Assembly (NCBI GenBank): GCA_038320055.1
Contig: JBBQDU010000003.1
Location: 1 to 43,492 of the forward strand
Origin: Gemmatimonadales bacterium
GTDB taxonomy: Bacteria > Gemmatimonadota > Gemmatimonadetes > Gemmatimonadales > GWC2-71-9
Direction: 5' to 3'
DNA: 43,492 bases
The translations under genes and the position numbers were made by a program. The notes below the pieces were generated by a model. The model was not told the origin of the DNA. It saw only the letters and a program-made list of their open reading frames with translations, and did not search any database. Positions 3,334-20,998 of the stretch are shown here, in pieces. Each line of letters begins with the position of its first letter. Position 1 is the first letter of the stretch.

Positions 3334-3352
3334 GTCCGGCAGCGAGGGAGGG

Positions 3353-3385
3353 AAAACGAAACACCCCGTCCGCAAGGACGGGGTG
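3353..3385 (-). terminator. Intrinsic terminator downstream of tRNA-Asp
   Basis: 10-bp perfect stem CACCCCGTCC/GGACGGGGTG (3362-3371, 3376-3385), 4-nt loop, followed on the minus strand by TTTCGTTTT. Confidence 0.75.
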
Positions 3386-3404
3386 GCACGTTCAGCAGCG
3401 GGAG

Positions 3405-3479
3405 CGGGGCTGACGGGGCTCGAACCCGCGACCTCCGCAGTGACAGTGCGGCACTCTAACCAAGCTGAGCTACAGCCCC
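3405..3479 (-). tRNA. tRNA-Asp(GTC), CCA not encoded
   Basis: GGGGCTGTAGCTCAGCTTGGTTAGAGTGCCGCACT-GTC-ACTGCGGAGGTCGCGGGTTCGAGCCCCGTCAGCCCCG folds as a cloverleaf with GGTTCGA T-loop and G discriminator. Confidence 0.97.
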
Positions 3480-3496
3480 TTCGAACGGCGGGGGTG

Positions 3497-3502
3497 AATA
3501 TA
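3497..3502 (-). promoter_or_regulatory. Putative -10 element (TATATT) for tRNA-Asp
   Basis: TATATT 17 nt upstream of the tRNA in very GC-rich DNA, followed by a GC-rich discriminator-like CACCCCCGCC; the -35 match is weak. Confidence 0.5.
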
Positions 3503-3529
3503 GGCAACGGGGTGCCCCCGTGGAACCCC

Positions 3530-5248: not shown

Positions 5249-5316
5249 TCCAGTGCCTCCACATAGGATTGGCCCCGAGAGGCCAGCGACGACCGCGCGG
5301 ATGACGCGGAAGCAAA

Positions 5317-5391
5317 TGGGCGAAGAGGGATTCGAACCCCCGACATCCTGCGTGTAAGGCAGGCGCTCTGAACCAACTGAGCTATTCGCCC
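5317..5391 (-). tRNA. tRNA-Val(TAC), CCA not encoded
   Basis: GGGCGAATAGCTCAGTTGGTTCAGAGCGCCTGCCT-TAC-ACGCAGGATGTCGGGGGTTCGAATCCCTCTTCGCCCA folds as a cloverleaf. Confidence 0.97.
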
Positions 5392-5398
5392 CGACATC

Positions 5399-5455
5399 GC
5401 ACGGCCCCTGCGCCCACGGTCGGTATGGAATTAGCTACGAACGCAGGGACCGTGC
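5399..5455 (-). repeat. 14-bp inverted repeat (hairpin) in the tRNA-Val 5' leader
   Basis: Arms 5399-5412 and 5442-5455, 29-nt loop; the single mismatch is a G-U pair in minus-strand RNA. Confidence 0.7.
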
Positions 5456-5474
5456 CGTGACAGAGAACACCCCC

Positions 5475-5687
5475 CTACAGCGCAATCCCGATCGGGAAGA
5501 GCACGCAGTACCCCACGACGAGCAACACGGCCGCGGCACTCGCGTGTCCCGCAGCGAGCGTCAGATAGCCCGCGACGAGCACGAGAACGGCGGCGGCGAG
5601 AATGAACAGGTTGCGGCGTGCGAGCAGGAAACGGCGCTCAACGCGGGCGCCGCGCGCCGGGGGAGCCGAGTGGGGCGAACTGGGCAT
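5475..5687 (-). CDS. Small two-TM membrane protein (DUF3098-like)
   Basis: 70 aa; RRNLFILAAAVLVLVAGYLTL...LLVVGYCVLFPIGI gives two hydrophobic helices; has its own promoter-like element. Confidence 0.7.
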   Translation of the reverse strand: MPSSPHSAPPARGARVERRFLLARRNLFILAAAVLVLVAGYLTLAAGHASAAAVLLVVGYCVLFPIGIAL

Positions 5688-5695
5688 AAGCCAGG

Positions 5696-5724
5696 ATGCT
5701 ACCCCTGTTTGCGGGTCGGGTCAA
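5696..5724 (-). promoter_or_regulatory. Putative sigma70-type promoter TTGACC-N17-TAGCAT
   Basis: -35 TTGACC (5719-5724), exact 17-nt spacer, -10 TAGCAT (5696-5701), 8 nt before the ATG at 5687. Confidence 0.6.
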
Positions 5725-6604
5725 GTTCAGGCCCCTCCTCGGGTTCAGCCTCCACATCCCATCCCGTATCAAGGGCGGCTCGGCGGCTCCGGTCCGCGCG
5801 GCGGCGGCGGCGCACCAGCCACAGGACGGCCAGGGCGGCCACGGCCCAGCCGCCCCCCGCGACGAGCCAATTCCCCAGCGTGTACCTCCGTTTGAGCGCC
5901 CGCTGCCATTCCTGCTCGAACCGGCCGATGGGCAGTCCCGTCGTGGCCAACACGGCCCGCTCGAAGTCCTCCCCTGCCTGGAGCCGATCCAGTAGTGGGC
6001 CGAGCGTACCTGTCGGGTTCCGTCGGGCCAGCTCGGTGACGGCCGACGTCGCGAGGGCGTATGCGGCCTCGGCACTGGACGCCGATCCACGCAGTGCCCC
6101 GTCCAGCGCCGTGAGCGATGGGACCGCCCCTCGGACCACGGCGAGATTGAGTTCGAGTCCGCCCAGCCGCTCCCACTCGCCTGCCGCCCAGGCCGCGTAG
6201 CCCTCATCGAACCAGAGCGGGATGCGTCCTTCGACTGCCTCGTGGAGGGCGAGATGCGCCAGTTCATGCCGAAGGGTGCGGACCAGATCACCCTGATCGG
6301 CACGGAGCACGATGGTGCGGGCGCCCGGCACGGCGATGGCCGCTCCCCAGGACGGAGCGCGGCCCGCCGTCAACGAATCGAGGACACGGCCATCGGGCAC
6401 GACGATGAGGCGGAGAGGACCAGGATCTCGGACACCGAGGCCGGGCCAGTCGGCGGGCCGGTCGGCGACCGTGGCGAGTTCGATGGCGAGGGTTTGTTGG
6501 GGCGGCCACGCGACCGCGGTGACCCTGCCGACCTGAACGGTCGTCGGGGCCCCTTGCAGCAGCAGGCCGAGTACGAGGCCTAGGAGAGCAGGTTGCGCGG
6601 GACC
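5699..6604 (-). CDS. Gluzincin-type zinc metallopeptidase (peptidase MA-like), exported and C-terminally anchored; start uncertain
   Basis: HELAH (HExxH) plus PLWFDEGYA third-ligand motif; C-terminal TM followed by RRRRR. The frame stays open and protein-like to 6604, beyond the GTG at 6400. Confidence 0.8.
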   Translation of the reverse strand, partial: GPAQPALLGLVLGLLLQGAPTTVQVGRVTAVAWPPQQTLAIELATVADRPADWPGLGVRDPGPLRLIVVPDGRVLDSLTAGRAPSWGAAIAVPGARTIVLRADQGDLVRTLRHELAHLALHEAVEGRIPLWFDEGYAAWAAGEWERLGGLELNLAVVRGAVPSLTALDGALRGSASSAEAAYALATSAVTELARRNPTGTLGPLLDRLQAGEDFERAVLATTGLPIGRFEQEWQRALKRRYTLGNWLVAGGGWAVAALAVLWLVRRRRRADRSRRAALDTGWDVEAEPEEGPELDPTRKQG

Positions 6605-7449
6605 TCACCCCCGGCGGCGGCCACGTCGAGCATCTCTCTGCAGCGCTTGGCCCACGGACTGAACTTGTTCGCCTTGTGGCCGTCTCCCCAGGCCTGTACG
6701 GCCTCGTCGCGTTGACCCGCAAGCCACAGGGCACGACCGAGCTCGAAGTGGGCCTCGATCAGATTGGGACCCAGTTTCAAGGTTTTCCGGAGAAAGCTCT
6801 GGGCGTCCTCGTACATCTCGCGCTCCAGGTAGACCAGCCCCAGATAGTAGTGCGCATAAAGCGTGGCTTTGCGGTCGCTGTCCAGACGAATGGCTTTGGA
6901 GAGGTGCTCGATCGCCTCGCCGAAGATGCGCTTCTTCAGACAGATATAGCCGACGTTGATGCGTGCCAGCGCGTTGGCCGGCTCCTTCATCAGGACGCGC
7001 GAGAAGGTGCCAAGCGCATCGTCGTAGTCCTCGTGAAGCATCTGCGCCCACCCCAGCAGCGACAGGGCCTCGACCGCTCCAGGGGAGAGCGCGAGGGCCT
7101 TCTCGAGCGACTGGATCGCCCCGGTGTAGTCACCGAGGGAAATGAGGCTCCACCCCTTCTCGATGAAGGTGGACGCGCCGAGATGATCCGCGTGCACCGC
7201 GGGTCGAGCACCGGAAAACTGGGGTGCCACAGCCGCCGACGCCGCCGCACCCTGCTTGTAGCGGTCGACCAGGCGCCGGATGTCTTCCTTCATCTGCCCC
7301 AAGTCGGTGAGTGTCGTATCCACGCGCTTGAACAGGGCGATGATGTCCTGCTTGAGCGCCTCGCGGTCGGCCGCCGCGGTGGCGGTGCCGAGCCGGGCCT
7401 CGATGTCCTGGAACTGGCGCCGGAGGGCCTCGAGCGGCTGATCGCTCAC
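6580..7449 (-). CDS. TPR protein with N-terminal coiled coil
   Basis: About five TPR units (GDYTGAIQSLEKALALSP, AHYYLGLVYL, AHFELGRAL); 4-nt overlap with upstream cheW. Confidence 0.85.
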   Translation of the reverse strand: MSDQPLEALRRQFQDIEARLGTATAAADREALKQDIIALFKRVDTTLTDLGQMKEDIRRLVDRYKQGAAASAAVAPQFSGARPAVHADHLGASTFIEKGWSLISLGDYTGAIQSLEKALALSPGAVEALSLLGWAQMLHEDYDDALGTFSRVLMKEPANALARINVGYICLKKRIFGEAIEHLSKAIRLDSDRKATLYAHYYLGLVYLEREMYEDAQSFLRKTLKLGPNLIEAHFELGRALWLAGQRDEAVQAWGDGHKANKFSPWAKRCREMLDVAAAGGEVPRNLLS

Positions 7450-7916
7450 GGCGCGCCTCCTTGGGCCGACAACGCCAGTCGCTCGGTCGAGGACAGGAGC
7501 TTCCTGGCGTTGAGGATGATGATCGTCCGGCCGGGGCGGACCACAATCCCGGCGATGTAGGCCGCCGCGAGCCCGCTGACCACCGGCCCGGGCGCGGTGA
7601 TGGTGGTGCTGTCCACGCGCATGACCTCGCGGACCTCGTCGACCAGGAGGCCGATGCGCTGCTCGCCCAGGTCCACCACCATGAGTCGGGTCTCCTCCCG
7701 GATCGGTGCCTCGAGCTCGAACCGCTTGCGCAGATCGACCACCGGCAGGGCCGTGCCCTCATAGGGCACGACGCCTTCCAGGTAGGCGGGAGCGTTGGGC
7801 AGCGGCGCCGGCGTCACGTGCCGCAGGATTCGCTCGACCTGCAGAATGTCGAACGCGAACTCCTGGGTGCCGACCCGGAAGCTGACCACCTGGATGTCGT
7901 CCCCGGAGGCGGTCAT
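7446..7916 (-). CDS. cheW: CheW adaptor
   Basis: From ATG 7916: QVVSFRVGTQEFAFDILQVERI, PLPNAPAYLEGVV, PVVDLRKRF, IGLLVDEVREV. Confidence 0.92.
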   Translation of the reverse strand: MTASGDDIQVVSFRVGTQEFAFDILQVERILRHVTPAPLPNAPAYLEGVVPYEGTALPVVDLRKRFELEAPIREETRLMVVDLGEQRIGLLVDEVREVMRVDSTTITAPGPVVSGLAAAYIAGIVVRPGRTIIILNARKLLSSTERLALSAQGGAP

Positions 7917-8341
7917 GCGGCGGGCGCCTCCGCGAACCGCGCGCCGAGGGCGTCGAGGTCGAGCAACGGCACGAGCCCGCTCTCGGTGCGCGCCACCGCG
8001 GCGGCCCATGGCAGCGCGGAGCCGCCGGGCACGGCTCGGCCGGCCTCGACGAGGACCGACTCGGCGTCTTCCACTTCGAGGCAGATCCGCCGCCCGCCAA
8101 GTTGTACGAGCACGCCGAGATGGCTCGCGACCGCCGGGAAGCACGTGCCGTCGAGCAGCGCGCCGAGGTGGATCAGCGGCAGGATCCGGCCGCGGATTAC
8201 CACGACGCCGCGGACCGAGGCCTCGAGCGACGGCACCGGAAACACCGCGTCGAACGCCAGGACCTCGATGACCTGGTCGAGCGGCAGGCCGACGAGTCGG
8301 CTGTCCGCGCGTACCAGCAGATGGCCCGCCGAGGTCGTCAT
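7913..8341 (-). CDS. cheW: Divergent CheW-like protein
   Basis: From ATG 8341 (ATGA overlap with cheB): [48 protein letters not shown]. Confidence 0.82.
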
Positions 8342-9411
8342 TGTGCCGCCATTCTGGCCAGCTCCTCGGCGACCCGCGTCGCAATGTCGCCGACGGGCAG
8401 CACGTGCGTCGCACCTCCCGCCTGCACGGCTGCGTTGGGCATGCCGAAGATCGTGGCGGTCTCTCGATCCTGTGCGATGCCGACCCCGCCGGCATCGCGC
8501 ATCTGGCGGAGGCCCTCCGCGCCGTCGCGGCCCAACCCGGTCAGCACGACCCCGACCGCGCGGGGCCCGAACGTACGGGCGACGCTCCGAAAGAGCGGGT
8601 CGGCCGCCGGACGCACGCCCCACACCGCGGGCTCCTGGTCCAGCGCCAGGCGGACGTCCTCGCCGGCGGTCACGACGCGCATATGGTAATCCCCCGGCGC
8701 CACGTACGCGGTGTCCGCCAAGAGCGGCGCGCCGTGTTCCGCCTCGACCACGTTGAGCCGACTCTGAGCGGCCAGCCGTTCGGCCAGACTGCGGGTGAAT
8801 TTGGGAGGCATGTGCTGCACGATGAGCACCGCCGCTTGCTGTCCGATCGGGAGCGCGGGCACGACCTCCGCCAAGGCGCGCGGCCCCCCGGTGGACGCCG
8901 CGATCGCCGCGCACTGGCGGGCCCGCCCCGGGAGCGCGAACATCGCCGGCATGTGCGCGCCGCGCGCCGGCCGCGCCAGCACCGGCATCCGGAGGATCGC
9001 GGCGCTCTCCACGGTGCGGAGCGTACCCAGCAACCGCTCGGCGAATCCGGCGATGGCCGCCGGGCTCCGCGCCTCTTCCTTGGCGACGAGATCCACGGCG
9101 CCCAGCTCGAGCGCCCGGATGGCCGCGGCGGTGCCTGGCCCGGCATACGAACTGACGACCACGATCGGGCGCGGCGATTCCGACATGATGTATCCGATCG
9201 CCCCGAGCCCGTCGAGCTCCGGCATCTCCAGATCCATGAGGACGAGATCGGGCGACTGCTCGTGGACCCGCCGTACCGCGTCCATTCCGTTGCGGGCCGT
9301 GCCGACCACCCGAAACTCGGGACTCTCCCCGACGATGTCGGTGAGGAGCCGGCGGAAGAACGGGCTGTCGTCGACGACGAGCACCGTCCGGCGCTCAGAG
9401 AGTCCGGACAC
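8338..9411 (-). CDS. cheB: Chemotaxis methylesterase CheB (receiver + esterase)
   Basis: Receiver VVDDS...MDLEMP; catalytic ASTGG, QHMP, GRDG; RPAADPLF. Confidence 0.95.
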
Positions 9412-9883
9412 CGTGCGCCACCGTGCTCACCTCCACCCGACCGTCGGCCACCCACAGCCTGACCGTTCGGCCGTAGTCGCCACCCGTGGCCTCGCCCTTG
9501 AGCGCGAGGCCGTGAGCGTACAACGCCTGCCGGCACGCGACGATGTTCCGCTCGCCCATCTGGATCGTGCCGCCCGAGGCCAGCCCGCCGAACATGCTCG
9601 CCCCGCCGGCCAGCCGGCCCGTGATGCGCCGAGCGGCGGCGCCGTGCTGCGCCATGAGATCCAGCAGCATGGGCACAGCCGTCTGCGGGAACTTGGCGGG
9701 GCTGGCATCCTTCCGGGCCAGCGCGGGCGACGGCAGCAACACGTGCGCCAGGCCGCCAACGCGTGCCTGGGGGTCGTACAACAGGATCGCGACGCAGCTG
9801 CCCAGGCCGACCGTGGTCAGGATGTCGTCACCGGTCCCGGCGCGCAGATCGGCGACCCTGACGAGAATCTCGGTCCCGCTCAT
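9395..9883 (-). CDS. cheD: Chemoreceptor glutamine deamidase CheD
   Basis: [37 protein letters not shown]. Confidence 0.95.
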
Positions 9884-10698
9884 AGCGGCCGCCGGTAGAG
9901 GCGCTCACGCGGGTCGACGAGACTGAGGCGGTCGCGTGCGGCGCCCGACAGGGTCTCCACCTTTCCGAGTACCAGGTAGCCCCCGGGCACGAGCGCCTCG
10001 GCAAAGGCCTGAAACAGCTGCTCCTGCATGGGACGGTCGAAGTAGATCACGACATTGCGACAGAGGATGAGGTCGTAGCCGGTTCGGATCGGCGGCTCGC
10101 AGGTGAGGTCGAGCGCCCGCACCTGGACCCGTCGGCGAACGTGCTCCACCACGCGCCGATCGGTTCCACACGCCTCGAAGTAGGGCCGAGCCAGCTCATC
10201 GGGCATCTCGGTCAGCGCTTCCGCGGGGTAGCGGGCCGCGCACGCCCGGTCGAGGCTCGTCCGGTCGATGTCGGTGGCGTCAATCGTGAGGCGGCCCAGC
10301 TCGACGCCCCTGCCGCCGCCGTCGAGATGGGCCGCCGCCAGGATCGCGAGCGTGTACGGTTCCTCGCCGGAGGCACACCCGGCGCTCCAGACACGGACCT
10401 CGGGCCGCCCGGCGTCGAGCAGCGCGGGCAGCACCTGCCGCCGAAGGAGATTCCAGGTCTCCGCGTTCCGATAGAACCGCGTGACGTTGATGGTCAGCGC
10501 GTCCCGAAGGCGGTCGTATTCCCCCGGCAGGCGGTCGAGCAACGCGCGGTAGTCGTCGTAGGTATGGACCCCGCACGCACGCATGCGGACGGCGATCCGC
10601 CGCCGGATACACTTGTCCTTGTACACCGCGAGGGCGAAGCCGCTGGTGTGCGTGATCTGCCGCGCCAGAGCCGCGAAGCCCATGTCGTCGCCGGTCAC
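9880..10698 (-). CDS. cheR: Chemotaxis methyltransferase CheR
   Basis: GTG 10698 (GTGA overlap with upstream gene); LTINVTRFYRN, VWSAGCASGEEPY, ATDID, DLILCRNVVIYF. Confidence 0.94.
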   Translation of the reverse strand: MTGDDMGFAALARQITHTSGFALAVYKDKCIRRRIAVRMRACGVHTYDDYRALLDRLPGEYDRLRDALTINVTRFYRNAETWNLLRRQVLPALLDAGRPEVRVWSAGCASGEEPYTLAILAAAHLDGGGRGVELGRLTIDATDIDRTSLDRACAARYPAEALTEMPDELARPYFEACGTDRRVVEHVRRRVQVRALDLTCEPPIRTGYDLILCRNVVIYFDRPMQEQLFQAFAEALVPGGYLVLGKVETLSGAARDRLSLVDPRERLYRRPL

Positions 10699-12311
10699 GG
10701 GACCATGTCCAGCATCTCCAGGTTCGCGCGCGCGAGGGCGTGGCCGGGGTTCAGCGTGGTCGCCCGGCTCCACCGCTCGCGCGCCATCGCCTTGTCCCGG
10801 CGCTTGTAGGCGATGTTGCCGAGCTTGAAGTACAGGTCGTCGCCCAGATCCGGCGCCAGCTTCGCGGCGCGCTCGTACGCCTCGCGGGCCTCGTCGTAGC
10901 GGCCGTTCCGGTAGAGGATGTCGGCCAGGTTCTTCGAGATCTGCGGCAGCGACGGATCCTCCGACAGCGCCGCGCGGAGGGCCGCTTCCGCCCCGGCCAC
11001 GTCGCCGGTGAGCTCGAGCAGGACGGCGAGATTGTTCTGCAGCGCCGCGCTCGCGGGATACTCCGCGATCCCGCCCCGGGCCGCCCGGAGCGCCCCGGGC
11101 GTGTCGTCGTGGCCGGCGCTCGCGAGCGTCGCCGCCCAGTACCACAGCGCCGGCGCGGCCGTGCCACCGTGGAGCTGGCGCGTCTGCAGCAGACGCACCA
11201 GCGCGACCGGGAAGTCGCCGCGCTTGAGCGCCAGTACGCTCCAGCCGAGCATGATGCGGGCATCGGCGGGGGCGCGCGAGGCGGCGGCCCCGAGCGCCGC
11301 TTCCGCCTCGTCGAGCCGATTGAGGCGCTCGAGCGCGTAGCCCCGGTTGTGCAGCGCCGCGGCGCCGCCGGTGCCGGCCGTCGCCGCTCGCTCGAACGCC
11401 TCGGCGGCCTCCTCCCACCGCGACTGGCGCACCGCGATGAGACCGAGGTAGAACGGGGCGCTCGGATCGGCCGGCCGCAGCTCGGCCACCCGGCGAAATT
11501 CGCGGAGCGCTTCGTCGAGCATCGCCGCCTTGTAGAAGGCGACCCCCAGATTCCGATGCTCCTCCACCCGTCCCTCGGGGACTTTCGGCGCGGCCGGCGC
11601 CGAGGTCCCGACCCGGTGCGCGAAGCCGGCGGTAATCAGCCCGAACAGCGCCTTCCCGACCTCGAAGTCGACCAGACCCGAAGTGTCGATAAGCGCCTGC
11701 ACGTCCCGGGAGCCGTCGAGCAGCGGGTACAGGCGCTGTTGCTCCGCCGAGAGGTCGCTCGTGGACTGCGCGATGCGGGCGGGGTCGATGGCGAAAATAA
11801 GGTCGAACGAGGGAATCTTCTTTTCAATGAGACTCCACTCGTCCACCCGCCGGGCGCCCTCGAGCAGCAGGAACTCGGGATTGATACGGACGAGAAAATC
11901 CTGTTGCTCGGGCTGGAGACCGGCCTCGAAGTTGAACGTTCCGGAGGTCCACGTAAACAGAAAGTAGACGGCCTCTTCGATCTGGAGGCGCATATAGCTC
12001 TCGAGCTCGTCGCGCCGGAGCGCGCCCTCGTCGACGAGAATCTCGCCGAGCTTCCGCCCGCGGTTCCCGTCCTGACGCGCGATCGCCTGCTGGAGGACTT
12101 CCTGCGTGATGCGCCCGCTTCGCAGGAGAATGTCGCCCAGCCGATCCCGGCGGTTCACGATCGCGGCGTAGACGATGCGGCCATCGTCGAAGTAGATCGT
12201 CCCGAAATTGTGCCGGTCGGCCAGGGCCAGGCAGCCGGTGCGGCGTCCCAGGAACAGGAGCTGGATCACGTCGGGGAGGCTGGCCTCCTTCAGGCTTCCC
12301 TTGATCGCCAT
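10695..12311 (-). CDS. DUF4388 (PatA_N-like) + MshEN-like + TPR protein
   Basis: Starts MAIKGSLKEASLPDVIQLL...RRTGCL (TGATG overlap); tandem RLGDIL/KLGEIL motifs; W-x-x-G-x-F-x-F; LLLEGARRVDEW; C-terminal TPRs. Confidence 0.88.
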   Translation of the reverse strand: MAIKGSLKEASLPDVIQLLFLGRRTGCLALADRHNFGTIYFDDGRIVYAAIVNRRDRLGDILLRSGRITQEVLQQAIARQDGNRGRKLGEILVDEGALRRDELESYMRLQIEEAVYFLFTWTSGTFNFEAGLQPEQQDFLVRINPEFLLLEGARRVDEWSLIEKKIPSFDLIFAIDPARIAQSTSDLSAEQQRLYPLLDGSRDVQALIDTSGLVDFEVGKALFGLITAGFAHRVGTSAPAAPKVPEGRVEEHRNLGVAFYKAAMLDEALREFRRVAELRPADPSAPFYLGLIAVRQSRWEEAAEAFERAATAGTGGAAALHNRGYALERLNRLDEAEAALGAAASRAPADARIMLGWSVLALKRGDFPVALVRLLQTRQLHGGTAAPALWYWAATLASAGHDDTPGALRAARGGIAEYPASAALQNNLAVLLELTGDVAGAEAALRAALSEDPSLPQISKNLADILYRNGRYDEAREAYERAAKLAPDLGDDLYFKLGNIAYKRRDKAMARERWSRATTLNPGHALARANLEMLDMVP

Positions 12312-14344
12312 CAGCGCCAGTCCTCGATGATGCGATCGCCGACCGTGGGCCATTCCCACACCATCTTCTCGCGGCTCCGGGTAGCGCCGGCCCCGGCCGC
12401 GACGATCCCGCTGGAGCGCGACGCCGCCGGCTGCGCGGCGGCCGGAGCCGGCACGTCTTCGAGCAGCACGCGCGCCATCGCCACGTCAGGCGAGGCACCC
12501 TCGCCCGCGGCGGCCTCGAGCACCCGCTGCAATAGCGCCTGCACCGCGCGCATCGAATCGGCGGGCCGGGCGGCCAGATACGCGGCCAGCTCGGCGTCGG
12601 CGGTGCCGTAGCGGGTCTCGAGTTCGCGGATGAGGACGCGCTCGCGGACGGCCGCGTCGGGCAGCGGCCATTCGACGACCAGGCCCCCCTCCAACCGGGT
12701 GCGGAGCCGTGCCTCGACGCCGGTCAGCTCGGCCATCGGCAGGGCCGAGGTGAAGACGAGCTGCCGCCCCTCGCCGATCAAGGCGTTGAAGAGCACGAAG
12801 AGCTCTTCCTGGGTGCGGTCCTTGTCGGCGACGAGGTGAACGTCGTCAAGCAGAAAGGCCGTGGCGCGGCGATAGCGAGCCCGCCATGCCGCCACGGCGT
12901 CGCGGTCGATCGCCTCAATGAGCTCGCCCGTGAACTCGGCGGCGCTGAGACACGCCACCGGACCGCCTCGCTCACCGAGGGCGTTGCCGATCGCGTGCAG
13001 CACGTGGGTCTTCCCGACCGCGCCGCCACCGATCAGCACAAGAGGGTTGTAGCGCTCGCCCGGTTCGGCCACGACGGCGCGCACCGCCTCGAATCCCATC
13101 CGGGTGGCCACGGTCTCGACGAGACCGTCGAGCCGCCACAGCGGCGACGGGGCCGGCGGGGGGGGACCTTCCTCTCGTGCCTGCCGGAGGGCCTCCGCGG
13201 CCGCGTCGAGGTTCGCCGGATCCTGGAAGGCCGCCGACCCCGCGAGCTCCGGGGCGAGCGCGGCGGCCTCCGCACGCATATGCTGCAGACGCTCGACATC
13301 CTCTTCGTACTCGCGCAGCGTCCGGGCAGGGTCGCCCACCATCTCCCGGGCGAGGAGCGCTTCGAGCTGCGTGGTGCGAAACCCTTCTCCCTGCCAGCGC
13401 AGGATGGTGGCACTCACCTGGCCGCGCCAGGCATCCACCTGCTGGGCAACGGTGTGGGAGATCTCCGACAGAAAATCGTCGAACTCATCCGAGGCCGGAG
13501 CCTCGGCGGCGAGATCGTGCCCCGAAACCTCCGCCGACGGGCGCTCCGCGGGGGGATCCTCGACCAATCCGGCTTCCGGGGATCCATACGCTGCCGCCGG
13601 ACTCTGCGTCGCGGCCGGCGTCTCAACCTCGCCGCCGACCAGCATCCTGGCTTCCGCGGGCGTCAGCGGCTTTTCGCTCACGGCCTGGAAGGCGATCAGC
13701 CGATTGAGGGCGCCCAGCAGCTCCCGGACGTTGTCGATGCCAAGGGTCGCCACGGCCTCGAGCACACCACCGTCGAAGGCGGCGCGGCGCTCCTCGGCCT
13801 TGCGGCGCAAGATGGCGACCCGGGTCTCGTAGTCCGGCGCCGACACGTCGATGATCAAGCCGCCCGCGAAGCGCCGGCTCAGCCGCTCGTCGAGCGCCTC
13901 GATCTCGGCGGGTGGCCGGTCGCTGGTCAGCACGATCTGTCGGTTGGCCGTCTGGAGCGCGTCCGTCAGGCGCAACAGCTCCGCCTGCATCTCGCGACGG
14001 TGGGTGAGGAACTGGACGTCGTCCACGAGCAGGAGGTCCACGTCGAGAAAGCGCTTGCGGTACGCCTCGCCGTGACCGGCGGCGATGGCGGCGTGAAAGG
14101 CCTCGACGAATTCGTCGAGCGTGAGGTACTCCACCGTGAGCCGGGGATTGATCGCCCGGGCGGCGTGGCCGATGGCCATGAGGAGGTGGGTCTTGCCGAG
14201 CCCCGGGCGCGCATAGACGAAGAGCGGGTTGTACACCGTCCCCGGCGACTCCGCCACGGCCTTGGCCGCGGTGGCCGCGAGGCGGTTCGCCGCGCCCACG
14301 ACCAGCGTGTCGAAGCGGTAGAGCGGATTGAGCGTCACAGTCAC
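12311..14344 (-). CDS. Tandem DnaA/Hda-family AAA+ ATPase lacking DnaA domains I and IV
   Basis: Module 1: LNPLYRFDTLVVGAAN, YNPLFVYARPGLGKTHL, LLVDDVQFL, LDERLSRRF, NVREL. Module 2: YNPLVLIGGGAVGKTHVL, FLLDDVH, TQEELF, ARLRTRLEGGL. No C-terminal DnaA-box-binding HTH. Confidence 0.9.
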   Translation of the reverse strand: MTVTLNPLYRFDTLVVGAANRLAATAAKAVAESPGTVYNPLFVYARPGLGKTHLLMAIGHAARAINPRLTVEYLTLDEFVEAFHAAIAAGHGEAYRKRFLDVDLLLVDDVQFLTHRREMQAELLRLTDALQTANRQIVLTSDRPPAEIEALDERLSRRFAGGLIIDVSAPDYETRVAILRRKAEERRAAFDGGVLEAVATLGIDNVRELLGALNRLIAFQAVSEKPLTPAEARMLVGGEVETPAATQSPAAAYGSPEAGLVEDPPAERPSAEVSGHDLAAEAPASDEFDDFLSEISHTVAQQVDAWRGQVSATILRWQGEGFRTTQLEALLAREMVGDPARTLREYEEDVERLQHMRAEAAALAPELAGSAAFQDPANLDAAAEALRQAREEGPPPPAPSPLWRLDGLVETVATRMGFEAVRAVVAEPGERYNPLVLIGGGAVGKTHVLHAIGNALGERGGPVACLSAAEFTGELIEAIDRDAVAAWRARYRRATAFLLDDVHLVADKDRTQEELFVLFNALIGEGRQLVFTSALPMAELTGVEARLRTRLEGGLVVEWPLPDAAVRERVLIRELETRYGTADAELAAYLAARPADSMRAVQALLQRVLEAAAGEGASPDVAMARVLLEDVPAPAAAQPAASRSSGIVAAGAGATRSREKMVWEWPTVGDRIIEDWR

Positions 14345-14943
14345 GCGATCGCCCCTCCCACGGCCAGCCGCTTGAGCACCAGCTCGGAGACCCCGCGCAG
14401 GGTCTCGAACACCCCGTTCCCGTGCAGAGCGTCGGCCCCGAAGCTCGGCACCTCCCGGAAGTTGAGCGCGTCGTCCATCTCCTCGTGAGAGAGGATCAGG
14501 TCGCCCGGGAGATCCTGCTTGTTGTACTGGAACACCACCGGCAGCCGCCGGATGTCCACTCCCTGCGCCAGAAGATTGTCCTGCAGGTTCTGCAGACTCT
14601 CCAGGTTGTCGTCGAAGCGGCGGGCCTGGCTGTCACCCACGAAGACCACGCCGTCGGCCCCCTGCAGTACCAGCTTCCTGGTCGCGTTGTAGTAGCTCTG
14701 GCCGGGCACCGTGTAGAGCTGGAACTTGGTGGTGAAGCTCGAGATGGTCCCCAGCTCCAACGGCAGAAAGTCGAAGAAGAGCGTGCGGTCGGTCTGGGTC
14801 GCGAGGGAGACCATGCGGCCGCGACGGCTCTCGGGTACGCGCCCGTAGACGTACTGCAGGTTGGTCGTCTTGCCCGACCGTCCCGGTCCGTAGTAGACGA
14901 TCTTGCAGGTGATCTCACGGGCCGTGAAGTTGACGAGAGACAT
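14341..14943 (-). CDS. mglA: MglA-family small Ras-like GTPase
   Basis: MSLVNFTAREITCKIVYYGPGRSGKTTNL, TDRTLFFDFLP, LYTVPGQ, TRKLVLQGADGVVFV, NKQDL. Confidence 0.95.
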   Translation of the reverse strand: MSLVNFTAREITCKIVYYGPGRSGKTTNLQYVYGRVPESRRGRMVSLATQTDRTLFFDFLPLELGTISSFTTKFQLYTVPGQSYYNATRKLVLQGADGVVFVGDSQARRFDDNLESLQNLQDNLLAQGVDIRRLPVVFQYNKQDLPGDLILSHEEMDDALNFREVPSFGADALHGNGVFETLRGVSELVLKRLAVGGAIA

Positions 14944-14948
14944 GCCGA

Positions 14949-15413
14949 TTACCGTCCGAAAAGCGCTTTGAGGCTGGCGTCGAGCTCGGTCTCGAAATTT
15001 TCCGCCAGCATCGGTGGGGCTGCTGCCACGTCCCGCGGCGCCGCGGCCGCGAGCTGACGCACCAGCCGGTCGAAGAACAGCCGCACGATGCCCACCGAGG
15101 TCTCGGGCCCGAACACCACCAGGCCGATCCACCGCCCCCGCGGCGTCGGGAACGCGGCGAGCATGCAGCTCTGCCGCTGCCCGTTGTGCACGAGCGCCTC
15201 GTACGGCGTGGCCCCCATGAGGCGGGCCAGCTCGTCGGTCGAGGCCACGATGCCGGCGCCCAGCGCGGCGGCGCTCATGACGTCCAGCGAGCGGGAGAAG
15301 CCGTGCTGCGCCACCACCTGCCCCGAGCTGGTCATGAGCAGCGTCAGGCGGGCCGCACTCTCGGCGAGAAACGTCTCGAGCGGCTCTGCCACCCACGGCT
15401 CGAGTGCCCGCAT
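14949..15413 (-). CDS. mglB: Roadblock/LC7 protein, MglB-like
   Basis: 154 aa; LLMTSSGQVVAQHG, AAALGAGIVASTDELARLMG, VVFGPETSVGIVRL; immediately upstream of mglA. Confidence 0.8.
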   Translation of the reverse strand: MRALEPWVAEPLETFLAESAARLTLLMTSSGQVVAQHGFSRSLDVMSAAALGAGIVASTDELARLMGATPYEALVHNGQRQSCMLAAFPTPRGRWIGLVVFGPETSVGIVRLFFDRLVRQLAAAAPRDVAAAPPMLAENFETELDASLKALFGR

Positions 15414-15760
15414 CAGCCGAGGCGCTCCGCCGCCTCGAGCATCGCCAGGCGGGCCAGGCCGAGATCGGCCTCGGGGCCCACGACGGCCACCAGCACCAGG
15501 TCGTTGGGGCCGGGCGCCGCCAACACGCTCCCCGCCTCGCCCCTGAGGTGCACAAAGGCCGGCGGACCGACGCCGGCGGCGGCCGCGGTACGCGAGAGCC
15601 GTCCGACCAGACTCCCGGTCAGCGCCGCCGCCGCCTGACCATCCACATCGTCCATGAGCTGCTCCGCCACCACCAGGCCGTCCGACGCGGCAACCACGAG
15701 CGCGCCGCGTACCCCGGGGATCCGGGTGACCTGGTCGAGCGCGGTCTGCGTGGCGGTCAT
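15413..15760 (-). CDS. Roadblock/LC7 protein (second paralog)
   Basis: IPGVRGALVVAASDGLVV, AAAALTGSL, ADLGLARLAM; ATG 15760 overlaps the upstream stop. Confidence 0.85.
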   Translation of the reverse strand: MTATQTALDQVTRIPGVRGALVVAASDGLVVAEQLMDDVDGQAAAALTGSLVGRLSRTAAAAGVGPPAFVHLRGEAGSVLAAPGPNDLVLVAVVGPEADLGLARLAMLEAAERLG

Positions 15761-16647
15761 TCCGACACCTCCAGCCACGCGCGCGCGGCCCGTGCCGCCC
15801 GCTCGGCGACGAGGGTCACCCTCGCCATGGGCAGCGACGCCTCGCGCGCCGCGAGCAGCATCGTGTCCGGCGTCGGCGGCGTGAGCACGATCTGGCCACC
15901 GGGCGACTCGACCGCGATGACGTGCCAGCTGCCCAACCCTAGGAGGCGCGTGGTGCGCGCGGCCTCCCGCGACACGCCCGCCAGCTGGGCCGCCACACGG
16001 TCGCCCGCGTCGTGACCGTCCGGGCCCTCGAGCCGTCCACCGAGTCGGAGGCCCCGCGCATCGACGAGCAGCAGACCTCGCTCACCGCCGTCCAGATCAT
16101 CGAAGAGTGATGGCCGACCGCGCGGCGCGCCCTGGGCTGCGGCGGTCGGCGGCATCGGGGCCTCGAATTGGGCCGGTGCGTCCGGCTGGGCCGCCCCGGC
16201 CCCCACCGGCTCCGCCTCCGCCTGGGACGAAGCCACCGCGGCCGCGCGGACCTCGGCCCCGATCCGCGACAGCGCGCCGGGAATCGAGCGGTCGTCCGGA
16301 TCCACGTCCAGCGCGCGCTGCAGGTAGTCGAGCGCGGCAGCCGGGTCGCCCGCCCGGTAATAGAGGAAGGCGATGCCCTTGAGCGCGCCGCTCCGCATCG
16401 GATCGAGCTGCAGGGCCGACGACCAGGCGTCGAATCCCCCGGCCAGGTCGTCACGGTCCACGAGCACGCGCGCGAGGAGATCGTGCGCATCGGCCAGCCC
16501 GGGATAGTGCACGATGCCTCCGCGCGCGACCTTGTAGGCCGCATCGAGCTGACCCCGGCGGCGCAGCGCCTCGGCGAGCTCGAGGAACGCGAGGCTCCCC
16601 GGCTCGTCGGCGAGGCGTGCGGTCAGCGCGCGGATGTCGTCAGTCAT
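15757..16647 (-). CDS. TPR + C-terminal Roadblock/LC7 fusion protein
   Basis: From ATG 16647: AFLELAEALRRRGQLDAA and three further TPR-like units, Ala/Pro linker, then GLLLVDARGLRLGG...VAAQLAGVSREAARTTRLLGLGSW Roadblock pattern. Confidence 0.8.
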   Translation of the reverse strand: MTDDIRALTARLADEPGSLAFLELAEALRRRGQLDAAYKVARGGIVHYPGLADAHDLLARVLVDRDDLAGGFDAWSSALQLDPMRSGALKGIAFLYYRAGDPAAALDYLQRALDVDPDDRSIPGALSRIGAEVRAAAVASSQAEAEPVGAGAAQPDAPAQFEAPMPPTAAAQGAPRGRPSLFDDLDGGERGLLLVDARGLRLGGRLEGPDGHDAGDRVAAQLAGVSREAARTTRLLGLGSWHVIAVESPGGQIVLTPPTPDTMLLAAREASLPMARVTLVAERAARAARAWLEVSE

Positions 16648-17689
16648 GGTAGCGCTCCAACTCTCTGAGAATCGTCTCCGCCGCCTGGCGCAGGCGCTCG
16701 ACCGACGAGGTTTCCTCATCCTCGCCCGGGGTTCTCGTGTCGAGGCGGAACCACGACGCCCAGAGATCGAGCGCCTCGCGGTGCCGCCCGAGGGCGGCGT
16801 AGCACAGTCCGAGCAAACGCCGCGCCTCCGGCATGAGCGGATCGGTCTGCAGCAGCTCCTCGAGCGCCCCGGCCGCGAGCCCGTACTCCCGCTGGGCGAG
16901 CGCTTCACGGGCGGGTACGAGCAGTGCCGCCAGATCGCGACCCGGCTCCGCGTCCCGACCCGGGTGCGCCGGATCCTCCAGGGTGACGACGCCGGCGGTG
17001 GTCAGCCCGTAGACGGTCCGCGCCACTTCGAACTCCGAGCGGCCCAGCACTTCCGCGAGCGAGTGCAGGTCGCGCGCGCCGTCGACAGCGGCCAGCACCT
17101 CCCACTCGAACGGCACCAGGTCGAGCGGTTCCCCGCCCTGCGCGTCGGGAGCCGGAAGCCGTGGGACCATCCGGAGGTGCGACACCTTGGACCCGATGCG
17201 CGACCATTCGTCGATCCGGCGCGCGGCCTCCATGAGGAGCGCCTCTGTCGGAAAGCGGACCGGCGCTTCGACGGCCGCCTGGCAGACCGCCCCTTCCTCG
17301 AAGCGGAAGTAGCCCTCCGACCAGCGCATGAGCTCGAAGACGGCTTCCTCGATCTGCGTCTTGAGCTGCCGGTCCAGCTCGCGGCGCGTGATGACGCCGA
17401 GGCCCACCAGGATGTCGCCCAGGCGCCGAGCGTCGCCCCCGCTCTGCATGCTGCGGGCCCGCTCGATCTCGGCGCCGGTGATCTTCCCGGCCCGTACCAG
17501 GCGCGCGCCGAGCGGTTGCGGATCGCTGCCGACCGCGGCGGCGACCACGCCGCCGCGGTCGAAACAGACGGTGCCGGCGCTCTGCCGAAGCTCGGATGTG
17601 ACCCGCAGCACCCCGCTCTTCCGGCCCAGGTCGAGCAACTGGAAGACGTCCGGGATGTGCAGGTCCTTGAGCGGCCCTTCGAGCGCCAC
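16640..17689 (-). CDS. DUF4388 + MshEN-like protein with C-terminal TPR
   Basis: GTG 17689: ALEGPLKDLHIPDVFQLL...RKSGVL, PLGARLV/RLGDILV, WSEGYFRF, LLMEAARRIDEW; paralog of 10695-12311. Confidence 0.87.
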   Translation of the reverse strand: MALEGPLKDLHIPDVFQLLDLGRKSGVLRVTSELRQSAGTVCFDRGGVVAAAVGSDPQPLGARLVRAGKITGAEIERARSMQSGGDARRLGDILVGLGVITRRELDRQLKTQIEEAVFELMRWSEGYFRFEEGAVCQAAVEAPVRFPTEALLMEAARRIDEWSRIGSKVSHLRMVPRLPAPDAQGGEPLDLVPFEWEVLAAVDGARDLHSLAEVLGRSEFEVARTVYGLTTAGVVTLEDPAHPGRDAEPGRDLAALLVPAREALAQREYGLAAGALEELLQTDPLMPEARRLLGLCYAALGRHREALDLWASWFRLDTRTPGEDEETSSVERLRQAAETILRELERYHD

Positions 17690-17691
17690 GG

Positions 17692-20373
17692 CTAGCCCAC
17701 GGACGCGGTGAAGATGTGCTGGAGGTCGCGGGCCGAGCGCGCCCGCGTCCGCGCCTGCGACGCATACGGACCGGCCGGATCCAGCTGCACCACGCGCTCC
17801 CATGCCCGGACGGCCCGATCGAACTGGCGTTGTCGGGCGAGCGCCGCGCCCTCGTGGTACAGCGCGCCGGCGTGCTCAGGATCGAAGCGAAGCACGCGCT
17901 CGAACGCCTGAAGCGCCTCGGCGGTGCGGCCGTCCTCGAGCAGCGCGCGGCCCAGCGCGGTGAGCGCTTCGAGCTCGTAGGGATCGGCCTCGAGCAGCCG
18001 TACCAGGACGTCGATGGTCGCGCGCGGAGCCTCGGTGCGGCGGAGCAGGTCCGCCAGCGCGAGCGCCGCGGCGCCGTAGGTCGGGAGCAGATCCAGCGCC
18101 CGCTCGTACGCCGCGCGCGCCGCCGGCCAGTTCCCTCGCTCCTCCTCGATGCCACCGAGCTCGAACCACACGCGGACGAGCGAGGGGTCGAGCTGCAGCG
18201 CCGCATTGAAGGCGGCGAGCGCCGCGGCCCGGTCGCCCAGGCGCGCGGAGACCTGCGCCTGCAGGTGGAACAGATCGGGACGGCCGGGCGCGAGCGTCTG
18301 GGCCTCGCGAATGCAGTCGAGCGCGCCGAGCGCATCGTGCACGGCCAGCCGCACTCGCGCGCGGGCCACGAGCACCTCGACATCCCCCCGAACTCGGCAG
18401 GCCAGCTCGTCGGCGAGCGGAGCGGCCTCGCCGGCCCAGCCGAGGGCCAGGAGCGCGCGAATCTCGCCGAGGGTGGCGTCGGCGTCGTCCGGCATGGCCG
18501 CGCGAGCGGCCCGATAGCGCTCGAGTGCCTCTCCGTAGAGGCCCCGCTTGGCGAAGATGTCGCCCAGCAGGACGGCGGTGGCCCCCGGCTCGGCGCCGCG
18601 CACCTGGGCCCGGCCCAGCTCGGCCGAGGCCAGATCGAGCAACCCTTTGGCGATGTAATCGCGCGCCAGGACCAGCACGTCTCCCCCGGTTCCCACGGCC
18701 GCCGACGTGGCGGGCGTCAACTCCGCGAACAGCTGGTCGAGGGCCGGCGGATCGAAGGTGAACTCGCCTCCCAGCTGCTCGCCGGGCACCTCGGCGCCCA
18801 GTTCGGGCGCGATGGCGATCGTCGGGTCCTCGTACTGAAGGTCGATCGTCAACGAGAACTTCTGCGGCACGTAGAGCGGCTCGAGCTCGAGGGCGAGCCG
18901 CGTTTCGCGCAGGGCCCCGTCGAAGTCGCCCAGCTGGCTCAGAACGAAGCTCAGGTTGTAGCGCGCGCCGGCCATCCGGGGATCGGCGTCCACCGCCCGG
19001 CCGAACGCGTTGCGCGCGTCCTCGAATCGGCGCAGCTCCATCAGCACGAGCCCGACGCCGTTCCAGGCGACGGCGCTCCCGCTCTGCTCGCCCAGCGCGA
19101 GCTGGTATTCGTCGAGCGCGGCGCGAAGCTGGTGGCGCTGGAGGCAGAGCAGCCCGAGGTTGAGCCGGGCGGTGAACAGCGGCCGGTCCCCCGCGAGTGC
19201 CCGGCGGAACGCGGCGACAGCGGCGTCGCCCGGCTCGCTGGCGCGCACCACCCCGAGAGTGTTCCAGGCCAGCTGGTAGTCGGCGTCCGCGGCGACGGCG
19301 CGCTCGTAGGAGGCGATCGCGTCGTCCCGACGCCCGGCCTGGTGGAGGCACACGCCGCGCTCGTTCCAGAGCTTGGGCGACTCGGCGTGCTCGCGCACCA
19401 GCATGTCGTACAGGTCGAGGGCCTCGCCCAGCTCGCGACGCAGGAGATGCACCTCGGCCATCGCCTGGAGGGTCATGCGGCGGTCTTCGCCGGCCTCGAG
19501 CGCCAGTCGATATTCGCCGAGCGCCTGGTCGTGCAGCCCCTTTTGCCGAAGCGCGAGGCCCAGATTGTAGTGCGCGAGCGCGCCCCCCGCGACGATCTGG
19601 GGCCGCGCGCCCGTGCGCAAGCCGCCCCCCGCCGGGCCGCCGTTCACCCCGTACCGCTCGAGGGCGAGGTTCGCCTGGGCTCGGGCCAGGGTCGGATTCA
19701 GCTTGATGGCGCGCTTGGTGGACTCGCGCGCTTCCTCGTGGCGTCCGAGGTCGCCGTACAGAAACGCGAGGAGGTAGTGGGCCTCCGCATACTCCGGGTT
19801 CCGTTCGATGGCGCCGCGGAGCGCCTCGAGTGCGGGCTCGTTGAGGCCGCGGTTGTAGAGCACCTCGCCGTGATAGAAGCGGGCCACCGCGCTGGTGGGC
19901 TCCGCGGCACAGGCGCGGGCCAGCCAGTCGGTGGCGGTGTCCAGGTTGCCGCGCGCCTTCTCGGCGAGGCCGAGCTGCAGCATGGCGGGGACGTCGGCAG
20001 GGTGCCACGCGAGCAACGCCTGAAACTCGGCGATGGCCTCGGTGTGACGGCCGAGGGCGGCGTGCGCCCGGGCCAGCTCCCAGCGGGCGTCGCGGTCTTC
20101 CGGATGCCGGCGGACCCGCTCCCGCAAGTCGGTTACCCGGCGGTCGTAGTGCCCGCTCTCCCGGTAGGCGATGTCGAGGTTGCTTTGCGCCACCTGCATC
20201 CGCGGATCCAACTCGAGCGCGCGGACGAACTCGGTGATCGCGTCGTCGATCAGCCCCTTCTGGTAGTAGAGCACGCCCAGATTATTGTGGGCGCCGGCAT
20301 CGGCGGGGTCGATCCGGTGGGCAAAGGAGCGCAGGACGGCGAGGTCGCGCTCCGACAGAACGGGCCCGGGCAT
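17692..20373 (-). CDS. Large cytoplasmic TPR scaffold (893 aa)
   Basis: Many TPRs along the whole length (AHNNLGVLYY, AHYNLGLAL, AWNGVGLVL); no signal peptide seen. Confidence 0.9.
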   Translation of the reverse strand: MPGPVLSERDLAVLRSFAHRIDPADAGAHNNLGVLYYQKGLIDDAITEFVRALELDPRMQVAQSNLDIAYRESGHYDRRVTDLRERVRRHPEDRDARWELARAHAALGRHTEAIAEFQALLAWHPADVPAMLQLGLAEKARGNLDTATDWLARACAAEPTSAVARFYHGEVLYNRGLNEPALEALRGAIERNPEYAEAHYLLAFLYGDLGRHEEARESTKRAIKLNPTLARAQANLALERYGVNGGPAGGGLRTGARPQIVAGGALAHYNLGLALRQKGLHDQALGEYRLALEAGEDRRMTLQAMAEVHLLRRELGEALDLYDMLVREHAESPKLWNERGVCLHQAGRRDDAIASYERAVAADADYQLAWNTLGVVRASEPGDAAVAAFRRALAGDRPLFTARLNLGLLCLQRHQLRAALDEYQLALGEQSGSAVAWNGVGLVLMELRRFEDARNAFGRAVDADPRMAGARYNLSFVLSQLGDFDGALRETRLALELEPLYVPQKFSLTIDLQYEDPTIAIAPELGAEVPGEQLGGEFTFDPPALDQLFAELTPATSAAVGTGGDVLVLARDYIAKGLLDLASAELGRAQVRGAEPGATAVLLGDIFAKRGLYGEALERYRAARAAMPDDADATLGEIRALLALGWAGEAAPLADELACRVRGDVEVLVARARVRLAVHDALGALDCIREAQTLAPGRPDLFHLQAQVSARLGDRAAALAAFNAALQLDPSLVRVWFELGGIEEERGNWPAARAAYERALDLLPTYGAAALALADLLRRTEAPRATIDVLVRLLEADPYELEALTALGRALLEDGRTAEALQAFERVLRFDPEHAGALYHEGAALARQRQFDRAVRAWERVVQLDPAGPYASQARTRARSARDLQHIFTASVG

Positions 20374-20377
20374 CGGA

Positions 20378-20998
20378 TCAGGGGAGACGAATGGCGTCGA
20401 AGATCGCCCGCAGCGACGGCGTGTCGGGCAGCAGCAGGAAGTGACCGCGCAGGGGCTCGAGGGCGCCTTCCACCCGAAACGAGGTCTCGACGCAGAAGAC
20501 GAAGTCCCGGTCGTGGCCGAAGTTGAGGTAGGTGGTCGTGAGCACCGCGGCGTTCAGGTCGATCACGAGGCTCGGGACGGACGGGACCAGCATCATGCCC
20601 ATGAAATCGCTCAGCGCGTTCATGTACGCGCTGGCGAGGATGTTCCCCGCCTCCTTGAGCCCCGACTGCTCCATCACGCCGAACTCGCCGGTCGTCCCGG
20701 CACTCCGCCGGAGCAGTATATCACAGAGCGTTCGGGCCGACCCTTCCGGAAACAGGACCAGGGTGCGGCCGGTGAGATCGCCCATCATCTGCATCAGCAC
20801 CGCGGCGACGACCTCGTCGGGGCGGCCCACCATGTCGGTGACCTCCTCGAGCGGCCGGACGTTCACCTCGGGCACGGCAATCATGATGGTGCGGTTGGTC
20901 ATCTGCGACAGCGCGGTGGCCGCGTGGCCGGCCCCGATATTGGCCACCTCGCGCAGCGCGTCGAGCTGCAGTGCCTTCAAGCCCCGCACGTCTTCCAT
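20378..20998 (-). CDS. cheC: CheY-P phosphatase CheC
   Basis: Two E-x-x-N sites (DALREVANIGAGHAATALS, LKEAGNILASAYMNALS); FLLLPD near the C-terminus. Confidence 0.93.
   Translation of the reverse strand: MEDVRGLKALQLDALREVANIGAGHAATALSQMTNRTIMIAVPEVNVRPLEEVTDMVGRPDEVVAAVLMQMMGDLTGRTLVLFPEGSARTLCDILLRRSAGTTGEFGVMEQSGLKEAGNILASAYMNALSDFMGMMLVPSVPSLVIDLNAAVLTTTYLNFGHDRDFVFCVETSFRVEGALEPLRGHFLLLPDTPSLRAIFDAIRLP

Follow-up and report, generated by a model that had tools for sequence, protein, structure and literature searches.

An AAA+ domain of the DnaA type is taken as a sign of replication initiation or of its control. In DnaA itself (structures 8bv3, 8btg, 2z4r, 1l8q, 3r8f and 2hcb), the AAA+ module, domain III, is accompanied by domains I and II, which serve helicase and partner binding, and by domain IV, which binds DnaA boxes; Hda/HdaA is a single AAA+ module of the same type that lacks the DNA-box-binding domain. 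A second point of comparison is provided by MglA/MglB with Frz in Myxococcus xanthus and by the PATAN pilus regulators. In Synechocystis, the pilus ATPase PilB1 is reported to be bound at its N-terminal (GspE_N) domain by PATAN domains (10.1101/2021.06.11.447907), and PATAN genes are often found near MglA/MglB genes (10.1101/2021.06.11.447907; PMC4316618). The accessible text of PMC4316618 speaks of a Gemmatimonadetes MglA of Group 1 and of PATAN genes in the neighbourhood, with no mention of DnaA. Here, a stretch of 43,492 nucleotides from a Gemmatimonadales bacterium (assembly GCA_038320055.1, contig JBBQDU010000003.1, positions 1 to 43,492), hereafter the window, was analysed for a gene that we call dnaA2x (12311..14344, minus strand, stop codon included), which starts with GTG and encodes a tandem DnaA-domain-III protein of 677 aa. 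As judged from its sequence, dnaA2x belongs to the AAA+ proteins of the DnaA/Hda kind and is new in its architecture and gene context, in that the DnaA-type domain is duplicated, stands without the DNA-box- and partner-binding domains, and is fixed in a Ras-like-GTPase polarity/chemotaxis operon across much of the phylum. Its gene context suggests that it works in an MglA polarity module under Che control. We propose, with about even confidence, that the protein may act as an ATP-driven assembly switch or scaffold of this module, coupled to a PATAN/TPR protein (TPR, tetratricopeptide repeat) and to MglA, and probably controlling type IV pili. In the parts of the literature accessible to our search, no description of a DnaA-type ATPase in MglA/MglB, Frz or PATAN systems was found, nor any paper that links an ATPase resembling DnaA to MglA, PATAN or Gemmatimonadota; table S2 of PMC4316618 (gene neighbourhoods), which lay outside the search, may list dnaA2x as a neighbour.

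Two stretches of dnaA2x matched Bac_DnaA (PF00308; Pfam, E 7.7e-88), and a genome-wide profile scan placed their cores at 13847-14332 and 12671-13132, which bears out the two ATPase modules that an earlier note on this DNA, made from the letters of the sequence, had placed at about 13630-14344 and 12450-13150. Neither Bac_DnaA_C (PF08299) nor DnaA_N was matched at E <= 0.01 (Pfam) and no helix-turn-helix domain was found, as that note had expected; the protein begins at position 103 of the TIGR00362 profile, that is, without domain I. The motifs quoted in the note all occur in the translation, namely LNPLYRF, GLGKTH/AVGKTH, LVDD/LLDD, ERLSRRF/ARLRTRL, NVREL/SMRAV, EFDDFLSEIS...WQGEGF and SREKMVWEWP...EDWR. 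Module 1 (residues 1-238, 13631..14344; all parts of the gene lie on the minus strand) comprises an AAA+ core and lid and is the more DnaA-like of the two, while module 2 (residues 403-632, 12449..13138) is a second, more diverged DnaA-type AAA+ module. Between them lie a disordered Pro/Ala/acidic linker (residues 239-286, 13487..13630), with a predicted local distance difference test score (pLDDT) < 50 over residues 239-268 and 270-286, and a family-specific helical domain (residues 287-392, 13169..13486) with the motifs DEFxxFL...W...GEG(Y/F)RT..L...FRDPD. Module 2 is followed by a disordered stretch (633-658; pLDDT < 50 over 637-659) and by a Trp-rich C-terminal peptide (residues 659-677, 12314..12370; pLDDT ~70) with the conserved pattern EK.VW.WP...R.IEE. 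The AlphaFold2 model of the whole protein (mean pLDDT 86.8, predicted template modelling score 0.50) reproduced the linker and helical segment that had been described from the letters alone, as disordered residues 239-286 and confidently helical residues 287-392; given the template modelling score of 0.50, the relative placement of the domains in the model is uncertain. The length and sequence of the linker varied across alignment A1 (30 sequences), the wider of the two dnaA2x alignments used here, the other being A4 (25 genome-derived sequences).

Both modules are DnaA-type when compared with known structures. Module 1 aligned without a gap to Bacillus subtilis DnaA (8btg/8bv3) over residues 5-228 (224 residues; phmmer, E 1.2e-55), its predicted model superposed on 8bv3_A with a TM-score of 0.93 and a root-mean-square deviation (rmsd) of 1.6 Å (Foldseek), and its identity to canonical DnaA domain III was 43-50%. 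Module 2 matched 8bv3 with an E value of 2.2e-32 (phmmer). A fold search with the whole model returned DnaA domain III and otherwise generic p97-type matches at rmsd > 20 Å; the p97 and Rix7 chains in the Foldseek list shared 12-15% identity, and each module by itself is of the DnaA type. In the classic tandem (type II) AAA+ ATPases, such as p97, NSF and ClpB, the two modules stack into double hexameric rings. Walker A, Walker B, box VII and sensor II are kept, as in DnaA. Across A4, the Walker A Lys (K51 in module 1, K445 in module 2) and the first Walker B Asp (D108 and D500) were present in 25/25 sequences, as was D109 of module 1. The box VII Arg was found in 22/25 (R154) and 24/25 (R546), the arginine finger in 23/25 for both modules (R158 and R550), and the sensor II Arg in 24/25 (R207) and 21/25 (R599). 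These motifs predict that both modules bind ATP.

The differences from DnaA and Hda are equally marked. Compared with DnaA, dnaA2x has two modules per chain, lacks domains I, II and IV, carries a helical domain and C-terminal peptide of its own, and is located in a che/mglA operon, not beside dnaN. It resembles Hda/HdaA in being built of DnaA domain III without a DNA-box-binding domain; unlike those single-module proteins, it has two modules in 677 aa and another gene context, and its score with the Hda model TIGR03420 (149.5 bits) falls below the cut-off of 194.8. It passes the DnaA equivalog cut-off of TIGR00362 (423.5 vs 343.9 bits) only through the summing of its two module scores, the best stretch covering profile positions 103-333 of 437. 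Homologues are named 'DnaA/Hda family protein [Gemmatimonadales]' by NCBI and 'chromosomal replication initiator protein' by several sources. The databases label the dnaA2x family generically or wrongly as an initiator, and programs that look for dnaA or oriC can be misled by the gene.

The results support the conclusion, already drawn in the earlier note, that dnaA2x is not a replication initiator. The genome of the window is a metagenome-assembled genome of 302 contigs (89% complete), in which the two dnaA2x modules are the only Bac_DnaA matches. A canonical domain IV (Bac_DnaA_C) is located at 17578-17784 of contig C34, beside dnaN (region C34:16078-18096, locus L003). The frame that holds it is cut by the contig end, leaving 197 aa (lid and domain IV) followed by dnaN; a canonical dnaA therefore exists, with its AAA+ part run off the contig, and dnaA2x is not the only dnaA-like gene of this genome. 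In 5/5 near-complete relatives there is exactly one domain IV, in a frame of 469-514 aa, far from dnaA2x or on another contig, and in complete relatives the two genes are 1.7-2.3 Mb apart. dnaA was detected in 150/151 genomes sampled from the phylum.

The gene context carries the functional proposal. dnaA2x is part of a cluster, all on the minus strand, with the order cheY-cheA-cheC-893-aa TPR-PATAN/TPR-TPR/Roadblock-two Roadblock-mglA-dnaA2x-PATAN/TPR-cheR-cheD-cheB-cheW-TPR-MA-peptidase-TPR. The start of dnaA2x overlaps the mglA stop in the sequence GTGA, confirming the overlap noted earlier, and at its other end the stop shares bases with the start codon (ATG) of the downstream PATAN/TPR gene (TGATG). 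The locus is comparable to MglA/MglB with Frz in M. xanthus and to the PATAN systems in that MglA, a Roadblock/MglB-like protein, PATAN, TPR and a full che set are found in one cluster; it differs in that the polarity genes are located inside the che operon, with an AAA+ gene between mglA and PATAN/TPR. By its sequence features the neighbouring GTPase is a true MglA: the window protein gave a full-length match of 247 bits to M. xanthus MglA (5ymx) and a match of 219 bits to Thermus thermophilus MglA, and GPGRSGKT, TVPGQ and NKQD were invariant among the MglA sequences of alignment A5. A second MglA paralogue was observed elsewhere in the genome of the window and in most relatives, with ~62% identity over the first ~150 residues and frames of ~228 aa; genomes without the cluster-type MglA often retain just this paralogue.

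The arrangement was highly conserved among relatives. In 29/29 loci of the same family, dnaA2x had mglA as its immediate upstream neighbour and the PATAN/TPR gene as its immediate downstream one; in 20 more diverged loci, mglA was adjacent in 19 and PATAN/TPR in all 20, giving 48/49 and 49/49 for all loci combined. The more diverged loci also kept cheD and cheB downstream (19/20) and cheA, cheC and the 893-aa TPR gene upstream (18/20); the latter were missing from L044 and from L053, for which the upstream flank spans just ~3.4 kb. The cluster is vertically inherited, and the downstream PATAN/TPR gene, not mglA, is the most constant neighbour of dnaA2x. The idea in the earlier note of an ATPase repurposed as an MglA effector stands in part: gene context favours repurposing within the MglA module, in which the PATAN/TPR protein would be a likelier partner than MglA.

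The family is large, and its named members all belong to Gemmatimonadota. More than 120 full-length homologues of 650-710 aa were found at 71-99% identity, some on contigs of up to 1.1 Mb, and the search of cluster representatives extended the family to dozens of clusters at the 50% identity level, with members of 580-700 aa and identities as low as 34%; six tandem-sized clusters in the ESM Atlas all had Gemmatimonadota as the commonest taxon. The sequence signature of the helical domain was detected in 99/151 genomes, distributed over the families as f1 69/71, f2 22/31, f3 2/2, f4 1/1, f5 1/1, f8 2/2 and f7 1/16, and in none of the genomes sampled from families f6, f9 and f10-f12. The 151 genomes include the unpublished G057 and G097, the latter among the f8 genomes, and no claim is based on these two alone. 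MglA was found at E <= 1e-30 in 117/151 genomes; every family with the helical-domain signature also carries the cluster-type MglA, and families f10-f12 have neither (0/19 each). In a wider contig scan (at least 599 stretches, of which 80 loci were kept), matches beyond the AAA+ core were limited to 11 Gemmatimonadota/Gemmatimonadales loci, ten of them matching the helical domain, module 2 and the tail, and the remaining one (L054) ending at the contig end before the tail. The other 69/80 loci showed little beyond the AAA+ core and were read as canonical dnaA.

In a phylogenetic tree of the modules (72 rows, unrooted, without Hda), module 1 and module 2 each formed a clade with a Shimodaira-Hasegawa-like approximate likelihood-ratio (SH-aLRT) support of 100. 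The canonical DnaAs of the phylum formed a clade (97) among the DnaAs of other phyla, in which neither module nested. Rows L047_M1 and L061_M1 were dropped since their best module 1 tblastn match fell on the module 2 region, and L036_M1 sat on a very long branch (3.84). The two subtrees mirror each other; the fusion is therefore old, having arisen before these lineages diverged, and its parts evolve together. Given the fact that the tree is unrooted and without Hda, it leaves the sister status of modules 1 and 2 unreadable.

The two segments that are specific to the family are conserved as well. The helices of the helical domain (residues 287-319, 325-332, 339-363 and 376-392) were modelled with high pLDDT, the domain modelled alone reached a pLDDT of 86.7, and F291, W306, G321, L327, L353 and P376 were invariant in A4. 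Against the PDB it gave no Foldseek match at E <= 0.001, and in a wide VIA-align search the best Z score was 6.2 (EzrA, a tRNA-synthetase arm and similar), which is in the range common for helical hairpins and identifies no specific fold. In the tail, E659, W665 and E674 were conserved in 25/25 sequences of A4, K660 in 24/25, and W663 and R671 in 23/25. The tail motif was present in 45/49 C-terminal halves, the last 25 residues of L016, L020, L046 and L049 being without it.

We therefore picture, conditionally, the following mechanism. dnaA2x would be a cytoplasmic ATPase with two DnaA-domain-III AAA+ modules in one chain, forming a built-in part of the chemosensory-MglA/MglB-PATAN/TPR cluster. 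To go by the motifs, both modules would bind ATP and the box VII arginines would permit head-to-tail AAA+ contacts, either within one chain as a closed pseudo-dimer or between chains as a DnaA-like open oligomer, and ATP hydrolysis would reset the assembly. Gene coupling and conservation suggest that the nucleotide-dependent assembly state may be coupled to the neighbours through the helical domain and the Trp-rich tail, the most likely partner being the PATAN/TPR protein, whose gene is translationally coupled to dnaA2x, while the GTPase switch of MglA would take part as well. In this way, the polarity module under Che control would acquire a second nucleotide-based timer or scaffold, and the output would probably be where the motors of type IV pili are placed or how active they are. 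Five T2SSE-family ATPase matches above the cut-off were found in the genome of the window, and no flagellin was found in it or in a congeneric genome that is 96% complete. A complex prediction with MglA (residues 7-206 of A5), full-length dnaA2x (A4), GTP and two ATP gave a median score of 0.46 vs 0.34 for the control, which is no evidence either way.

Several observations weigh against the proposed assembly switch. Gene neighbourhood is not interaction. To our knowledge, the characterised AAA+ proteins of the initiator clade (DnaA, DnaC, Orc/Cdc6 and IstB) all act on DNA, and the residues that contact single-stranded DNA (ssDNA) are retained in module 2. Across A1, R158, the arginine finger of module 1, was present in just 15/30 sequences (25/30 for R550 of module 2). 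A more distant genome that bears the cluster (G067) has flagellin, and therefore the output need not be pili. In some lineages the cluster also does without the gene: G036 (L148) and G047 (L149) keep cheY...mglA-PATAN/TPR...cheB with dnaA2x cleanly absent, leaving a gap of ~240 nt, and G116 (L044) has dnaA2x and PATAN/TPR with no adjacent mglA. Other variants comprise G114 (L150), with the cluster reduced to mglA-PATAN/TPR, G038 and G107 (L151/L152), in which dnaA2x is accompanied by a strongly diverged MglA (34-37% identity) and cheR, cheD and cheB are missing, and G078 (L153), which has a dnaA2x form without the helical domain. Taken together, these variant loci show that dnaA2x is an accessory of the cluster; G036, G047 and G114 are natural deletion variants.

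The alternative that survives best, although we consider it unlikely, is a replication-linked regulator, whose modules would dock on the ends of DnaA-ATP oligomers, or on origin ssDNA through module 2, and would cap, nucleate or hydrolyse the oligomers, so that replication responds to the chemosensory/MglA polarity state. The idea in the earlier note of a protein that caps or regulates DnaA filaments falls under this alternative, and the results decide neither for it nor against it. The gapless alignment and 43-50% identity of module 1 to canonical domain III and the retained arginine fingers and sensor II speak for it, as does the position of the cluster next to the mraW/ftsI division cluster. 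It also draws on the ssDNA-contact residues. In B. subtilis DnaA, I190, K222 and T225 are reported to be needed for ssDNA binding (10.1101/2022.03.18.484894). Mapped through the phmmer alignments, their equivalents in module 2 are I476, K508 and T511 (I in 18/25, K in 15/25 and T in 14/25 sequences of A4), beside the invariant Q512 and E514. In module 1 they are H84, R116 and M119, and the position of I190 is H in 19/25 and never I, V or L. The predicted ssDNA-contact signature is thus kept by the more diverged module 2 and lost by the more DnaA-like module 1, and its presence in module 2 keeps both this alternative and the tether considered below in play.

On the other side, the replication-linked role is opposed by the lack of a hydrophobic I190 equivalent in module 1, by the absence of domains I and IV, and by the distance from dnaA. 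A regular-expression search with a consensus for the N-terminal sliding-clamp-binding motif of Hda found the motif in 0/25 sequences at a shared position, with three scattered chance matches. dnaA2x is restricted to families with the Che/MglA cluster, as opposed to the near-universal dnaA, and has been lost from some genomes that retain both dnaA and the cluster. In one variant, P0226 (738 aa), both modules and the helical domain between them are kept, the Walker A/B motifs of the second module being degenerate (GKA; no DD), and a CheY-like receiver domain stands in place of the C-terminal lid and tail. In a narrower form, which we regard as rather improbable, the Che/MglA polarity module would signal directly to chromosome replication through dnaA2x as a DnaA mimic that joins DnaA-ATP oligomers, or origin ssDNA via module 2, in a state set by MglA, PATAN/TPR or Che; if so, cell polarity or surface behaviour would gate initiation in Gemmatimonadota.

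A nucleic-acid-bound polar tether appears very improbable. Here, an oligomer formed on ssDNA, other DNA or RNA via module 2 would tag part of the chromosome, or hold it in place, at the MglA-PATAN/TPR pole, with no action on DnaA. The signature in module 2, the conserved docking-like tail and helical domain, and the polarity-gene context agree with such a tether, which is opposed by the lack of a dsDNA-binding domain and of the ssDNA signature in module 1; because of the latter, every other subunit would break the continuity of a DnaA-like ssDNA spiral. Finally, an assembly artefact or a functionless, decaying dnaA duplicate, for which the fragmented and incomplete source genome and a homologue in two frames (G127, locus L046, a one-contig genome in which the neighbouring PATAN/TPR gene is also split, so that indel errors in the assembly are likelier than true gene fission) could be cited, is refuted by the one-frame architecture of more than 120 homologues across many assemblies and its presence in 99/151 genomes, by the invariant catalytic residues and by the age of both module clades, which also answers the earlier note's concern about an assembly fusion.

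The assembly-switch reading can be set beside other large, uncharacterised proteins in which DnaA-type AAA+ modules are fused to further domains. In other phyla, MshEN/GspE_N is joined to a pair of Bac_DnaA modules in proteins of 1876-1999 aa (for one relative the name given is Candidatus Fermentibacteria), TPR occurs with Bac_DnaA (about 1360-2150 aa; Candidatus Sumerlaeota and Hydrogenedentota), and there are zinc-ribbon or HEAT fusions, the examples being P0194, P0196, P0252 and further proteins. The fusions differ from dnaA2x in lacking its helical domain and tail, and both modules of P0194 resemble module 1. They suggest repeated recruitment of the DnaA-type ATPase outside replication and, like the receiver-bearing P0226, speak for a signalling role of dnaA2x; the GspE_N/MshEN domain that is fused to two DnaA-type modules is the same domain type that PATAN binds in PilB1. 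If dnaA2x is a signalling or scaffold ATPase, the initiator clade would extend beyond DNA transactions and the MglA/PATAN polarity systems would have a new component; if it still touches DnaA or DNA, polarity signalling would be linked to the cell cycle. Named homologues include Gemmatimonadaceae, a family with cultured members, which would make the question testable.

The remaining genes of the cluster were assigned as follows, all on the minus strand. Immediately upstream of dnaA2x, mglA (14341..14943) encodes 200 aa, and immediately downstream the PATAN(DUF4388)+TPR gene (10695..12311) encodes 538 aa with a DUF4388 match at E 5.1e-36 and TPRs. Of the two Roadblock genes, the Roadblock/LC7 (MglB-like) gene at 15413-15778 matched Robl_LC7 at E 1.1e-9, and the Roadblock-like gene at 14949-15413 gave a weak match under the curated cut-off (E 0.0057, 16.8 bits) at a position that is conserved across relatives. 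Pfam matches and conserved position identified the TPR+Roadblock gene (15757-about 16600) and the upstream PATAN(DUF4388)+TPR gene (16640-17803), both with uncertain starts. Further upstream, Pfam assigned the 893-aa TPR protein gene (17692-20373), cheC (20378-20998), cheA (21013-22881) and cheY (22885-23247), which relatives also keep. Downstream, cheR (9880-about 10719), cheD (9395-9883), cheB (8338-9411) and cheW (7446-7916) were assigned by Pfam and are conserved in relatives. A defence-system reading of dnaA2x was rejected, the only PADLOC match being DrmD (E 3.4e-5, 21.5 bits) with no stretch passing alone. On either side of the cluster (window positions 166-7449 and 23720-24793), rluD lies upstream and mraW-ftsI, of the division/cell-wall cluster, downstream after the TPR gene; mraZ was not noted in the window. 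Among loci L034-L053 and L148-L152, the same rluD / mraW-ftsI flanking was observed in the six for which the available sequence extends as far as rluD, mraW or both.

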